In this document: positions 1 to 6,000 of the stretch, piece by piece | Numbering within the stretch: position 1 is the first letter of the stretch | Layout of the letters: every line of letters starts with the position of its first letter | Virus record (IMG/VR): IMGVR_UViG_2585427621_000003 | Direction: 5' to 3' (one strand) | Length of the DNA stretch: 50,225 nt | From: a virus | Taxonomy: Duplodnaviria > Heunggongvirae > Uroviricota > Caudoviricetes | Made by a program: the position numbers

Positions 1-3000
1 CTACTTGCTAACCACGAGCGGCAAATCCAGTGTTGGTGTGATTTTTGTTTTACGATCGTAAATCAACACCTGATTTTCTGTTTTATGCCCGCTGAAAATT
101 TGTTTGTCGCGACTGCTGCCTTCGTAATCTGAGATCCCCTTGGCTTTTATGTCGTGAAAATTGCACCCGAACGGAACGCCAACTTTTTGCTCGGCTGCGC
201 GTTTAGCCTGATTCCACCAGTTATTCAGCGTTTTAGCTATGACTTTCCCGCCTTTGGTTGTATTGATCACATATTCGCATGTACAGGAAGATACATTTCG
301 GGCTAACTGGATCGCTGTACGTAATCGCGGTGACCATTCCTTGATTTGTTTGGTGCCGGTTTTGTTTTGCTCAATGTAGATCCCTTTATCCATAATATCC
401 TGCCATTTCAACTCAAGCACATCACCGAGTCTTGCCGCACAGAGATAGGAAATCTCCATTGCAATGCGTAACTGTGGAATTGCTTCCGCATATATCGCCG
501 CATACTGTTCATCGGTGATGTAAACAGTGCGGGCTTTAAGAGAGAATTTTCTGACTCCTTTGCATGGGTTATTCTTCACATACCCACGCTCATATCCCCA
601 CCCGTATACTCGACTCAGGCTTGCCAGTTCATGATTTGCCCCAAGCCCTCGTTTATCCATGAAAATTCTTACCTGCTCAGTTTTGACATTATCAGCAAGC
701 ACTTTTCCGAATACCATCAGCAACGCCTTCTGATGTTGTCGATAATCTTTTTGGGTTCGGGGGGCCAGTTCTGTAAATGCAGGGGAGTCCATAAACATGT
801 GCCACAATTTAGCTACGGTCATTATGTTGTGGAGTTTTGCTTTTTCCAGTTCATAATTTTGCCAGACTTTAGCTACGCTGGTTTTCCGCACTCTTCCTAG
901 CCCTATACTTCTTGTACTTCCTTCGGGTTTCCACACGTAACTGTAACCATTCGATCTAACCCGCGGTGGCAGTACATTATCTTTTTTATTTTTTCTTGGT
1001 CTTCCCATTGTTCAGCGCCTCAAAATCGGGTTCAGCAGAAACCAGTTCAGATGTTTTTGGCATCGTTGTCAGACCGTGTGGAATATCCCTGCGGAGAACT
1101 ATGGGTTCGTTTTTAGGGCCGATTACAAATGGGATGCCGTGCAGTCTTAACTGGTGTTGCTGTTTTGTGTATCGCTCGTATTTCGTGATCTCTTTAATCT
1201 CTGCTGGAGATAGAGTTAATTCGTACATGTGGTCACGTGCCTTTACAGCATGACCGCCGCCACTATAGCTGGTGGGCGGCGATATGGGTTGAACATCAAA
1301 AATCAGCCTGACTCGGGAGCAGTTTTTGCCAGATGGCTGAAACGTATTTCGCCTGGTAACGTGCATCGTGCAGGGCGTTATGGCGTTCACCTTCGAATGG
1401 AATAGTCGTTCTTGCGTCGAAATCCATCACCAGTCCCAGAGCAACCATCGTTCTTACATCGCGATCATTGGTGTAACGCCACGGGCAGGGGATCCCCTGC
1501 CGTTCATATGAACGGCGTAAAATCACGTTGTCGAAAGTTGCACCGTTACCCCAGACCTGAACAAAAAATTCACCGGAGTTTTCGTCGATAAATTCCCGGA
1601 ATTGCAGCAGTGCATCATCCAACGTGATTTCATCGGTCAGAATGGAGGATTGTGCTTCGCGTGACTGTTTCAGCCACCACTTAATGGTGTCCCGATCGAT
1701 GACCCCACCTGCGGTTTCCAGATCGATAGTTTTGCTGAATTCTGGCCCCATCTCTCCGGTTGCCGGATCAAAAAACTTACCGGCTATAGAGTTTATTGGC
1801 GCATCAGGATTTTTTCCCATTGTTTCAAGGTCAATCATCAGATGGTGCCACAACCTGCTGGTGGATGAGATTTCATGATGACCGTTCACTTTAATTAAGG
1901 GATTTGCTGTTTCGCCAGTTTTATTATCGCTGGCGTGATACTGATCGCTGCCAGTGTTCTCCTTGTGCAGATGTTCAGTGCCTTCCATTTCCTCCGGATC
2001 ATTTTTCTGAGCTTCAGCCTGATTCTCTTCATCGAATGTTTCCAGGTAGGTTGCGTTCCCCATCACCGCACCACAGTCAGGACAGTTGCCGCCACCGGTC
2101 TGACCGCATGCGGTGCAAACTTTTTCCAGTTCCTGTTGCACTGCTGGTTCTGGTTGTTGTTCTTCTGGCCCGTTTTGTTGCGTATCCGGGCTGTTTTGTT
2201 CCGCTTCTGGCTCATTTTGTTTCACGTTGGGCTGATTCTGGTCCTCAGCGTCGCGACTCTGGATCCCTTTCACCCATTTCGGATCATTCGGGTCGCTAAT
2301 CCCTTCAACAAATTCACCACGTGATGCAGCAAGCAATTTATCGGCGTCAGGCTGGCTGATATTGGCTGCCTGCATAATTTTGTTTACTTCGTCAGCGGTA
2401 ACTTTTACCGGCTCTGATTGTTCGGAATCTTCAGCGGTATCCACATTTTGCGGTAAGCCCGTGTATGTGCCATTTTTTCGGGCAAAATATTCTTCTTTTG
2501 AGATTTCGGTACCGCCGGCAGCCAGCGCCTTGTCCAGACCAGAAAGTTTGTTTGCCCTGCCGTATTTTTCCCCGCCCTTATCGGTAAAGACGAAATAAAA
2601 TGGTCCTTCACGCTCTACAGATGGTTCAGCTTCCACCAGGATTTCATTTTTTTGAGTATCGGATTCTGCCGTCTCCACTGGAGCAGTTTGTGCTGCTGAC
2701 GGCTGGAGAGCATCAGTAGAGCTCTGGTCTGTTTCTTCATGTTCAAACACGCCCTTTGTCGTCAGGTATTCACTGATATATTTGTTCAGTGCAACGGGAT
2801 CTTTGTGAATATCGATCGGACGTTCGCGAACAAGGCCAAAAATAGTCTGACGGTCATAGCCAAGTGCTTCGGGCTGTTTGCGCATTGATGCTGAGATACG
2901 CTTCCAGTCTTCGCGATCCTTGTCGATAACCTCATTTGTCGCCCAGCGATGGATGGTACCGTCAATGTTTCCTGCATCCACATCACCGGGCCAGAGGGCG

Positions 3001-6000
3001 CAGGCCAGTTCATTGTCGAGTGTTTTCCATGTCTGTTTGTATTCGCGGCGAATGGCAACAGTGACAGCCCCGGTTTTTTCAGCAGCGTTTTCAGTGTTCT
3101 GTTGGTTGACTCTGGCGCGGGTGAGATCAACAACAGACGTGTATTTTCCGGTTTCCTTGCGTTCACCTTCGCGACGTTTTTTCCAGATGCGCATCTCTGC
3201 CTGATTCAGCCATTTAGCGCCAGGCTCACATTTATGCTTAACCCACCCGATGGCATGCAGTTTAAGTTCAGGATACATGGCGTTAACTTCTGGCATTTTC
3301 ATCAACGCTTCAACGATATGTCCGCCGAATGTTGCCATGTCTTCCTGTAGTAATTCCTGTGCGCTAATCACCATATCAACGGTGATGTTTTCGCATGTGT
3401 CGAATTTAACCAGGACTGCGTTCTGTACTTCAGGGGACAGCTTGTCAAAATTGACGTTCATCGGATCGGATTCTGGTTCGACCGGTACAAAGGAAGCTGA
3501 CTCCTCATCCCAGCGGTTTTCCTGCATATATTCGGTATCCCAGGAATCGAGGGCAGGGCGGGGTATGCCGGGTTTATCCTCGCAGACAATAAATTTATAA
3601 GCGCAGTCCTGAGCTGCCGGGAATTGCTCCAGAAATTGCCAGTGAAATTTTGCGCGTGCGCGACGCTCATCACCGGCTTCAATGGCAGTGGCCACCGCAA
3701 CAGCGCTATCTTCTTTTATGGCCTGTTCGTCAGGAATAGCAGCGCAAATAAAGATTTTACTCATTGTGTTTTAACCTCATTACAGATTTAAGGGTGAACA
3801 AATCCCTGCCATTGCTGGCATATAAAAATGAAACCGGATATTAATTACGGTGCTGTTTTAAAGTCCTGCCGGTATTTCGTTATTATTAGTGTGAGTAGTT
3901 TTATCTACCGGATAACAGTTACCGGGAATTTTTTGTTCTGCTGCTGCAGCCATGCATTCTTTCATTGAACCGTATAAGCCAGTCACCAGCTCAAGAGATT
4001 CGCCGGAAACAAGATAAACTGTCAGAACGAGTGCAAATGTTGTATTCATTGTTTATATCCTTTTTGCAGCAGGTCCAGACGAGCCAGCATTGAAGGAATG
4101 CATACTTCATTTAACAGGTCCTGCTCGAGTTTTCTCTGCTTAATGGCGTCTTCAATAAATGTTTTGTCTCCAGTGATAACGCCAATTTCGAAACGAAGTT
4201 CAGACGTGCTGGCATTACATGATAACTTTTCCATTATCGCGTCCTCAACAATGAATTTTGTGATGCGGTGCCTGGTGCCTCCAGGTGACGTTAACCAGTT
4301 AACAATTAACGCCGGATACAGAGCATTCTCGTTACTCAGCAAATGACCGCTTTACCGATTTAACTGTTCCGCGTGCGCTGAGCCGCATTCACCGCATCAA
4401 CAAAATTTNACTTTTAAAAAAGGGCGGCAGAGCAGTTACGGAGTAAAACTGATACCGCCAAATGTCACCAGAATATTGATAACAGAGGGCGTTGCAGCGG
4501 GGTTGTCACTTAAGCGTATGGTCAACCTGACANCCCGGTGTCCTCAACGGGGAAAGAATAACCCCGCCATACTTACCGCCGCGCCATTTCGCGGATTGCC
4601 ACAACCGGAAGCGCACGGTCGAATTAAATTTAACGACGGCTCTAAGGGAGAAGGACTTCGCCGTGCACTTTCGTGTTATGCCCTGACTTTTCAGGGATAT
4701 ATCCTTTCAGTAAACTGTCAGTGCCGGATTCTTATCTGTGTCCGGCGCACGACCACACGTAGCAGCGTGTTGGTCTCCATTTTTAATTCAGCCCTTAATG
4801 GAGGATAAAATGCCAAACAAACCATGCCCTGCCTGTAACGCTCTTTCTGGCTTTTTAGAGAAGGGCGGTTATTACATTTTTAACTGTCCAGAACATGTTG
4901 AATTTCATATATCAAAACTTGACAGTATCATTACAAAGCCAAATCAGTATCAGTCTGATTTACTGAATAAAGAGTTAAACGCCGCCCGAGATTAAGGGCG
5001 TAGTGGCCCATTAAAAATATTGCAAAGACCAACTATTGTTGAACTGGATTAAACCAGTAATTCTCTATTGCTCTTATTGTTACCATCGGATGATTGCCGG
5101 GGGTTATTTTAAGTTCGGGAGGAAAAGGCTCTCCATCAGCAGCCATCATTGAGTATGTGAAATCCGCCGACGCAGTCCCTTTCATGATAATTCCGAATTT
5201 TTCAAGTAATGAGAGCAGTTCCGGTAATCCTGTGTCATCTGAATAACTTTCCTCATAGAAAGAAGCGATTGCCGCAGGAGATGACAGTTCTCGCTCTGCA
5301 ATTTTTTTGTAGTTTTCCAGAATTCTTTTTTTGAATACTTTTCCTCGACATGAAAACCCATCACCGAGGCAATCCGCTTTGCAGTTTCTTCAGTATTCTG
5401 GTTGTTTGTTACCGAAACAGAGTACAATCCGGTAAACGCATCGCGCACATTACGAGCCATATTATCAATGTATTTCTTCGTTGCAGATTCTAATTCAACT
5501 TCGTTCAGACGTTGGTGAAGTGCATGTGCTGCAATTTCCTGGATTTCTTTTAGTAAATCTTTAAATTCCATCTTTAACTCCGTTAGTCGTTAGATTTTGC
5601 CGAACTGGAAAGCGCCTGTTTAAACTCACTGAAGCTGAGAGCTTCCTCGCCTTCGGCAAGGCCTTCGAAGTATTCTTCGTAAGCCTTTTCCATGATTGTG
5701 TCGAAATCCATATCACTCACCTGAGTTTCTTTCCAGCCAGCGACGGGCACCATTTTCGGTTTTAAACGTTTTGCTTTTGGTATACGTCATCGCGGTGAAT
5801 GTACCGTCCTGGTTGGGAAACACGCCGTACACCAGAGATTCGTTGTTGCCAAGATCGATAGTATCCATGTTGACCTCATTTCCCCTTAACGCCGGGTAGC
5901 GGAACAAAAACCTGCTGCATAGTTATTAAAGTTGAACCCTGCCGTCATGTTCATACGCCTCGGGCTGGCTACTTACCCCCTGACCACTGCTTGGTAACTC

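Follow-up and report, generated by a model that had tools for sequence, protein, structure and literature searches.

The DNA analysed in this work, hereafter the window, is the whole 50,225-nucleotide viral record IMGVR_UViG_2585427621_000003 (Caudoviricetes) from IMG/VR, and the gene under study is a complete coding sequence on its minus strand at positions 1296-3764, which encodes 822 amino acids (aa) plus a stop codon and, within the early-left operon, is the final gene ahead of the excisionase and integrase genes (xis/int). As judged from sequence and profile comparisons, the protein is a modular member of the RecE family in which the 5'-3' PD-(D/E)XK nuclease head of RecE and the accompanying recT gene have been exchanged for a DEDDh head of the DexA/EcD/Rv2179c type. 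On balance, the protein is predicted to act as a tethered DNA 3'-5' exonuclease that is made on prophage derepression and works without an annealase, a reading that we hold with modest confidence.

A preliminary description of the window had reported an intact 822-aa open reading frame (ORF), its place in the recombination-gene position, a DEDDh domain of a class and polarity unlike those of lambda Exo and RecE, an acidic Gln/Pro-rich linker and the lack of a bet/recT-like annealase nearby, and all of these observations were reproduced, polarity as a prediction from the class. The frame starts with ATG, is preceded at about 10 nucleotides by a GAGG ribosome-binding site, and is uninterrupted with all catalytic residues present. 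Ambiguous bases (N) occur in the window at 4409, 4533, 18794, 18807, 26583 and further positions, and none lies inside the gene. The gene occupies the slot of Rac recE-recT, between the early-left genes and xis/int. Its reality goes well past what chance would give, as judged by the Pfam and PHROG matches, the substitution rates and the prevalence described below.

RecE-type scaffold

The same description had left the N-terminal 600 residues unassigned. Homology now identifies about the first 625 residues as a RecE-family non-catalytic scaffold. BLASTP against K-12 RecE aligned residues 261-624 to RecE 278-591 (E 4e-59), with residues 472-624 about 80% identical to RecE, through the putative zinc ribbon described below and up to the sequence ...ANPLI. 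The homology ends at about RecE residue 591, immediately before the nuclease, and the RecE nuclease itself is unmatched. Nearer the N-terminus, profile-profile comparison with hhalign matched residues 18-203 to RecE 15-221 (96.2% probability, E 2.5e-9, 180 columns); no protein was common to the two profiles, and a reversed-profile control gave an E value of 0.44. Two types of N-terminal module are distinguished here, the RecE type and the YdfE type, the latter carried by the window protein and named after the K-12 protein described below, and by this profile match they are remote homologues.

Pfam DUF3799, the family of the RecE PD-(D/E)XK nuclease, had no match in the window protein; applied to K-12 RecE (L004:5787-8387), it placed the nuclease at RecE 615-850, a span otherwise put at about 606-866. 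The NCBIfam equivalog model for exonuclease VIII (NF007259) scored 260 bits against a cutoff of 1269, and its best stretch comprised the non-catalytic profile positions 446-602. Compared with RecE (exonuclease VIII of the Rac prophage), the window protein thus has the same slot between early-left genes and xis/int, a similar length (822 against 866 aa) and a homologous non-catalytic scaffold over about 600 aa, whereas RecE carries a PD-(D/E)XK nuclease of 5'-3' polarity and has recT as a neighbour, and the window protein has no such domain, a predicted 3'-5' polarity and no adjacent recT. The preliminary description had allowed that the N-terminus might turn out to be a RecE-like domain of established function; it is RecE-like, and the function of the RecE N-terminal region is described as unknown in a review (PMC11611040), which also relates that linear-linear recombination is efficient only with full-length RecE, scaffold included (Fu 2012, as summarised in PMC11611040).

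Domain search and structure prediction, both envisaged earlier for the N-terminal region, gave the RecE homology and a modular outline, and a fold search with the scaffold model returned no informative match. AlphaFold2 modelling of residues 1-470 with 42 diverse sequences had a mean predicted local distance difference test score (pLDDT) of 84 and resolved four confident modules (residues 1-100, 105-205, 245-340 and 385-432), all encoded on the minus strand. An N-terminal alpha/beta module of the YdfE type (residues 1-100; 3465-3764) is the first part of the RecE N-module homologue, and a helical module (residues 105-205; 3150-3452; pLDDT 92-98) forms the second half of the YdfE-type N-module and lies inside the hhalign match. 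They are followed by a helical core (residues 245-340; 2745-3032; pLDDT 93-98) that is present in most long family members including RecE (about 278-345), and by a small beta-hairpin/helix module (residues 385-432; 2469-2612; pLDDT 81-96) between disordered acidic linkers, which recurs in many relatives as 'Q_346-470' matches in the phmmer domain map. BLASTP and the alignment of relatives further delimit a short family-wide motif (residues 472-500; 2265-2351, minus strand), where the stretch with about 80% identity to RecE begins. This motif is flanked by disordered linkers, is present in relatives with either head type, and looks like a docking motif for a partner.

The scaffold family is narrow: an exhaustive HMMER search with residues 1-470, which covered 1.84 billion representative proteins, yielded no more than 182 clusters at E<=1e-3. 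The diversity of relatives was taken from this representative-protein search, an earlier homologue search having given only near-identical E. coli proteins. Mapping of the long representatives (>=400 aa) with phmmer showed an N-module of the YdfE or RecE type, the shared core, the small module, the short motif and alternative heads, and each N-module type was found with each of the two identified heads.

DEDDh exonuclease head

The head occupies residues 640-822 (1299-1847, minus strand) and matches PF16473 (Rv2179c-like) at residues 640-812, over profile positions 1-177 of 177, with a score of 209.7 bits where the gathering threshold is 27 (E 3.5e-62). The motifs DLETMG, FDNV and HNALHDARY lie at residues 645-650, 744-747 and 795-803, and the H-x4-D signature of the h-type is H795-x4-D800. 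The catalytic residues D645, E647, D745, H795 and D800 align to D7, E9, D119, H186 and D191 of T4 DexA. In the predicted structure the head has an RNase H-like fold of the DnaQ type: Foldseek returned 132 matches at E<=1e-3, with T4 DexA at the top (8KEL, E 6e-10, TM 0.63-0.69), followed by RNase T, a DnaQ domain, Cap18 and oligoribonucleases including Orn. T4 DexA was also the sole match in a sequence search of the PDB (E 1e-6), in which phmmer found no significant match to Rv2179c. Rv2179c, the M. tuberculosis founder of PF16473, has the DEDDh chemistry in common with the window protein, which matches the full Pfam profile; it is a stand-alone bacterial exoribonuclease, whereas the window protein is fused to a scaffold.

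T4 DexA (exonuclease A; PDB 8KEL/8KEN) belongs to PF16473 and is phage-encoded like the window protein; it is 27% identical to the window head, and differs in being a stand-alone protein of 227 aa with extra loops and no scaffold. In a 2025 paper DexA is reported to switch between dimer and tetramer and to recognise DNA containing 5-hydroxymethylcytosine (5hmC) through W152 and D169 (PMC12153337). DexA and its stand-alone E. coli homologue EcD ('HREX') are DNases; EcD is reported to degrade T4 DNA and to protect cells against T4, and loss of the Asp that forms the tetramer (D90 in DexA, Ala78 in EcD) has been proposed to make EcD modification-specific (PMC12153337). The EcD sequence was recovered from viral contigs with the published forward primer, and its identity was confirmed by Ala78 at the DexA D90 position. 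Among relatives tested by experiment, EcD, a 189-aa stand-alone protein, comes closest to the head (38% identity, E 5e-35) and has the same compact domain without the extra loops of DexA; its genomic context is unlike that of the window gene.

The 189-aa EcD ORF was found on the IMG/VR viral or prophage contigs L280, L285, L295, L296, L298 and L301, so that EcD, published as a bacterial protein, may itself be phage-borne. Its neighbours on those contigs had no similarity to the int, xis and dicB genes of the window.

At the position of the Trp that has been proposed to stack on 5hmC (DexA W152, EcD W132) the window protein has Thr765, an assignment that is moderately reliable at 27-38% identity, with W762 three residues upstream. 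The DexA D90 position is D717, so the Asp that is Ala in EcD is kept, and DexA D169 aligns to D781 in the pairwise alignment and to L778 in a four-sequence alignment. HREX-type 5hmC specificity is therefore unsupported at the residue level, as Thr replaces the Trp and Asp717 is kept; the equivalent of D169 is ambiguous.

These residues bear on an anti-phage or exclusion role, in which the head, like EcD, would selectively degrade incoming 5hmC-modified phage DNA and so protect the lysogen. Such a role would fit the kinship to EcD and the reported activity of EcD against T4 DNA and T4 infection (PMC12153337). It would fit, too, the extreme commonness of the gene in E. coli prophages. DicB, encoded in the same operon, confers resistance to some phages. 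Beyond Thr765 and the retained Asp717, however, no PADLOC defence model was matched, the gene lies in a repressor-controlled early-left operon rather than being an independently expressed moron, and EcD is found in another genomic context. We regard this role as unlikely.

Improbable as well, in our assessment, is an exoribonuclease that trims or degrades RNA 3' ends, for example those of host transcripts or of dicBF processing intermediates. The name of PF16473 comes from the M. tuberculosis exoribonuclease, PGAP uses the label '3'-5' exoribonuclease', the head resembles RNase T, Orn, REXO2 and ERI3 strongly in structure, and the operon yields a processed small RNA, DicF. The best matches by both sequence and structure are nevertheless the DNases DexA and EcD, the scaffold is common with a DNA recombination nuclease, and RNase T acts on DNA too, its top structural matches being DNA complexes.

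Linkage to annealase genes

Annealase linkage was examined in three sets of loci from viral contigs: 80 close relatives of the window gene, 80 diverse DEDDh loci (72 scaffold-fused and 8 stand-alone) and 80 RecE controls. All ORFs of these loci were searched with iterated hidden Markov models (HMMs), for which two RecTs, Bet, Erf, Gam and lambda Exo served as seeds. RecT was detected in 79/80 RecE controls, the sole control without it being a locus cut by the contig end, in 0/81 of the close relatives together with the window, and in 1/80 of the diverse DEDDh loci (L121 only). None of the 153 scaffold-fused DEDDh loci (0/81 close, 0/72 diverse) had RecT, Bet or Erf, the annealase families specifically modelled. 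Searching with K-12 RecT by tblastn led to the same conclusion as the HMM screen, but was blind to the divergent RecT of L121, which is seen by Pfam. In the DEDDh-headed form the lack of an annealase is systematic.

Same-strand ORFs within <=4 kb were also grouped into 71 clusters and compared with Pfam; no annealase or single-stranded DNA-binding protein (SSB) was among the top 25 of 52 families, which included integrases, helix-turn-helix regulators, DicB, DUF1482 and insertion sequence (IS) genes. Around the window gene itself, Pfam and PHROG scans found no annealase or SSB in the small ORFs, including those upstream where the preliminary description had suggested looking for a partner, and neither these scans nor the PGAP annotation of the O157 twin prophage placed a recT-like gene between the 822-aa gene and the excisionase and integrase genes. 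Over the whole O157 twin, PGAP annotated no RecT, Bet, Erf or SSB, and RusA was the only recombination function. With respect to SynExo-type systems (RecET, Red alpha/beta), there is accordingly no adjacent annealase gene, and the sole nuclease domain is of the DEDDh class.

The single positive DEDDh locus (L121:9929-15886, IMGVR_UViG_2713897247_000007) is an operon that encodes a 1056-aa RecE-like PD-(D/E)XK protein, a divergent RecT, a dATP/dGTP pyrophosphohydrolase and a stand-alone DEDDh exonuclease. The latter has 233 aa and is 58% identical to the window head, so a DEDDh exonuclease can coexist with RecET as a separate gene.

These counts weigh on the explanation that the protein is a recombination exonuclease replacing RecE or lambda Exo and served by an unrecognised annealase or by host RecA/RecFOR. 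Its appeal lies in the genomic slot of recE, the scaffold common with RecE, the need of full-length RecE for that scaffold in efficient linear-linear recombination (Fu 2012, as summarised in PMC11611040), the sub-threshold Rad52-like similarity of the head of some scaffold relatives (see below) and the RusA gene in the prophage. A 3'-5' exonuclease would, however, remove the very 3' tails that annealases and RecA require, RecT, Bet and Erf are missing from all 153 fused loci as against RecT in 79/80 RecE loci, and PGAP annotated no annealase or SSB anywhere in the prophage. We give this explanation little credence.

Alternative heads on the scaffold

Other scaffold relatives end differently. 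In 17 representative clusters (P0130, P0131, P0132, P0144, P0151 and others; alignments A8 and A10) the same scaffold bears a different C-terminal head of about 280 aa, which matches PHROG 7838 (labelled 'exonuclease') and has the conserved stretch KKSLTDAxKKALSxLGFSADVxLGLYD. Matches to Pfam Rad52_Rad22 were obtained for 5/8 members at a score below threshold (17.5 against 20.3 bits), and no sequence match was found in the PDB. From its profile similarity, this third head may represent a Rad52-type annealase joined to a RecE scaffold; as the match is sub-threshold, the Rad52-like identity was kept as a lead only. A fourth group of six scaffold relatives (P0126, P0208, P0214, P0248, P0250 and P0268; alignment A9) has a C-terminal region unlike the other heads, with P0126 and P0250 matching PHROG 26058 (no known function).

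By these domain assignments the scaffold family comprises two N-module types and at least three C-terminal heads. A tentative extension, which we consider possible but rather less than even in its chances, is that the RecE N-terminal region is a general targeting platform for interchangeable DNA-end-processing heads in enterobacterial temperate phages. The heads would, at the same tentative level, be PD-(D/E)XK with RecT, DEDDh without an annealase, possibly a Rad52-like head, and at least one further head.

Linkers, cysteine motif and selection

The linker at residues 501-549 contains 22% Gln, 18% Glu and 12% Pro, and the net charge over residues 501-639 is -20. It leads into a putative zinc ribbon (residues 546-572; 2049-2129, minus strand), where the CxxC-x7-CxxC sequence CTACGQTGGGNCPDC spans residues 550-564 with Cys at 550, 553, 561 and 564. 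The motif claimed in the preliminary description is therefore present, is shared with K-12 RecE and is conserved (ratio of nonsynonymous to synonymous substitution rates, dN/dS, 0.11), but as a zinc ribbon it is lineage-restricted and modelled at low confidence: in an AlphaFold2 model of residues 540-822 the ribbon and linker part had pLDDT <50, and the head mostly 75-94. It is limited to the E. coli group and K-12 RecE. A role as hallmark of the family was ruled out, since only 1/68 long representative clusters carries the motif, which makes it a lineage feature.

Codon-level comparison with 10 homologues gave a whole-gene dN/dS of 0.20. Values by region were 0.09 for the N-terminal alpha/beta module, 0.13 for the helical module, 0.09 for the core, 0.08 for residues 385-432, the above-mentioned 0.11 for the zinc ribbon and 0.13 for the DEDDh head, and the predicted disordered linkers were relaxed (0.50-0.89). 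Every folded module is under purifying selection. The module-wise pattern gives independent support for the module boundaries, and the low values throughout the folded modules show that the whole protein is functional, not the nuclease alone.

It is very improbable that the gene is a dead remnant which defective prophages merely carry along. The prophage is degraded, its O157 near-twin having IS insertions together with frameshifts in the terminase, portal and J genes, and the K-12 copy ydfE is a pseudogene. The window gene, however, has an intact frame and a full set of catalytic residues, each of its folded modules has a dN/dS of 0.08-0.13 with relaxation in the linkers only, and viable phages carry the gene.

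Proposed activity

The reading that we favour is of a tethered 3'-5' exonuclease that acts on DNA without an annealase. The protein would be made once the DicA/cI-like repressor is relieved, and the scaffold would place the head at the usual target of the RecE N-terminus, probably DNA ends or a host factor. There the head is expected to work by two-metal catalysis, stripping nucleotides from 3'-OH ends. DNA is the most probable substrate, since both DexA and EcD, the nearest relatives that have been characterised, are DNases and since the scaffold is one of DNA-recombination proteins. The likeliest role would be the trimming or degradation of DNA ends early in lytic development. Candidate roles are DNA-end trimming, degradation of host or competitor DNA, exclusion of other phages and RNA processing. 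We infer that the protein is not a single-strand-annealing recombinase of the RecET or Red type, because it is predicted to leave 5' overhangs and to destroy 3' tails, and no annealase accompanies it.

Several points weigh against this proposal. Polarity and substrate are predictions drawn from family membership, the family PF16473 is itself named after an exoribonuclease, and the next-best structural matches of the head (RNase T and the oligoribonucleases) act on RNA. Delivery to DNA ends by the scaffold is speculation. As to the missing annealase, the RecE controls are nearly clonal, with 94-100% identity to K-12 RecE, the Pfam screen of neighbours showed 25 of 52 families, RecT, Bet and Erf were the annealases specifically modelled, and an annealase from another prophage could act in trans.

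Operon and prophage setting

The early-left genes run in the order cI-like repressor, RelBE, DUF1391 (ydfA-like), ydfB, hypothetical genes, DicF, dicB, DUF1482/ydfD-like, the 822-aa gene, DUF4224 excisionase-like gene and integrase. This order agrees with that of K-12 Qin and identifies a Qin-type dicBF early-left operon 3' of a DicA/DicC-type immunity region. Immediately upstream of the 822-aa gene lie, on the same minus strand, a YdfD-like DUF1482 protein gene (3858-4049; Pfam E 2.8e-19), the gene for the 62-aa cell-division inhibitor DicB (4046-4234, within ORF 4046-4342; Pfam DicB E 3.7e-38) and the DicF small RNA of the same operon (4422-4473; Rfam RF00039, 76.9 bits against a gathering score of 48). 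Downstream are the DUF4224 excisionase-like gene (986-1228, minus strand; Pfam and PHROG scans and PGAP annotation of the O157 twin) and, after it, the integrase (1-1008). DicB and YdfD are linked to the gene in 80/81 close loci; among the diverse DEDDh loci, YdfD is present in 49/80 and DicB in 31/80.

In K-12, a promoter 5' of dicB can co-transcribe dicB, ydfD and the pseudogenes ydfE, insD7 and intQ (bioRxiv 10.1101/2024.09.21.614188). The product of the Qin pseudogene ydfE (b1577; L005:5079-5999) is 88% identical to residues 1-255 of the window protein, and the gene is cut by IS2. Like the window gene it sits 3' of dicB-ydfD; it is truncated by IS2E and has no core, linkers or exonuclease head, the window gene being the intact form. 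By this sequence match, ydfE is the truncated stump of the 822-aa exonuclease gene. As K-12 has the stump only, work on the K-12 dicBF operon never included the intact distal protein.

The O157:H7 twin is a lambdoid prophage that adjoins yccA and has a tRNA-Ser at its far end. Given the IS insertions of this near-identical O157 prophage and the frameshifts in its terminase, portal and J genes, the window prophage is probably defective. Two identical IS3-type ALIL frameshift pseudoknots in the window (21153-21269 and 25608-25724) indicate two IS copies. Further features of the window are a RelE/RelB toxin-antitoxin pair (6145-6623, minus strand) with the immunity region on one side and the dicBF genes on the other, a hok/sok toxin-antitoxin locus (13208-13382, plus strand; Rfam sok 105.6 bits) further to the right, and a cluster of three tRNAs with an STnc100 small RNA 3' of the Q region (18107-18623).

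Distribution and annotation

The window gene is no one-off, being a member of an annotated family found in most complete E. coli genomes: a megablast match covering >=80% of the gene was present in 3526/5426 of them (about 65%). The PGAP 'exonuclease' WP_000034474.1 of E. coli O157:H7 is 99.9% identical, with 823 aa in RefSeq against one codon fewer (near residue 187) in the window gene, and PHROG 2082 ('exonuclease') is matched over the full length of the protein. Homologues at 84-87% nucleotide identity occur in the viable temperate phages Tritos, HannyBb, PhiR42_1, mEp460 and the PPompW phages. Among reference genomes the scaffold-DEDDh fusion is confined to Enterobacteriaceae, bar one 5.8-kb contig of a metagenome-assembled genome labelled Pseudomonas.

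The family is thus already in databases (PHROG 2082, PGAP names) and is not new in kind; its homologues also have entries under the newer Pfam families PF27430 and PF27432. In the searchable literature we found no experimental or analytical study of the 822-aa protein, and no report of the relationship of the whole N-terminus to RecE, of the head swap with systematic loss of recT, or of ydfE as a stump. Database names are inconsistent ('exonuclease', '3'-5' exoribonuclease' and 'exodeoxyribonuclease VIII'), and the last of these misleads, as a RecE nuclease domain is absent from the protein. PF06630 'Exonuc_VIII' (Enterobacterial exodeoxyribonuclease VIII) models RecE residues 2-178, the non-catalytic N-module and not the nuclease, which probably explains why proteins without the RecE nuclease bear this label.

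Implications

The gene has been overlooked in that the model strain K-12 has the truncated ydfE only. A common scaffold with alternative heads, and with recT only where the head is of the RecE type, amounts to a natural experiment on the unexplained RecE N-terminus, which is relevant to recombineering and direct cloning. Apart from boosting linear-linear recombination, that region has gone unexplained for decades. Should the RecE N-terminal region indeed be a general targeting platform, the DEDDh form would be a distinct and widespread phage function other than a recombinase, for example destruction of host or competitor DNA or antagonism of host pathways that depend on 3' tails, and comparison of heads on the common scaffold would make the function of the scaffold directly testable. 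Enterohaemorrhagic E. coli (EHEC) carries many lambdoid prophages. Degradation of DNA 3' ends by the protein on induction, should it occur, could alter the outcome of prophage induction, recombination between EHEC prophages and competition between phages.

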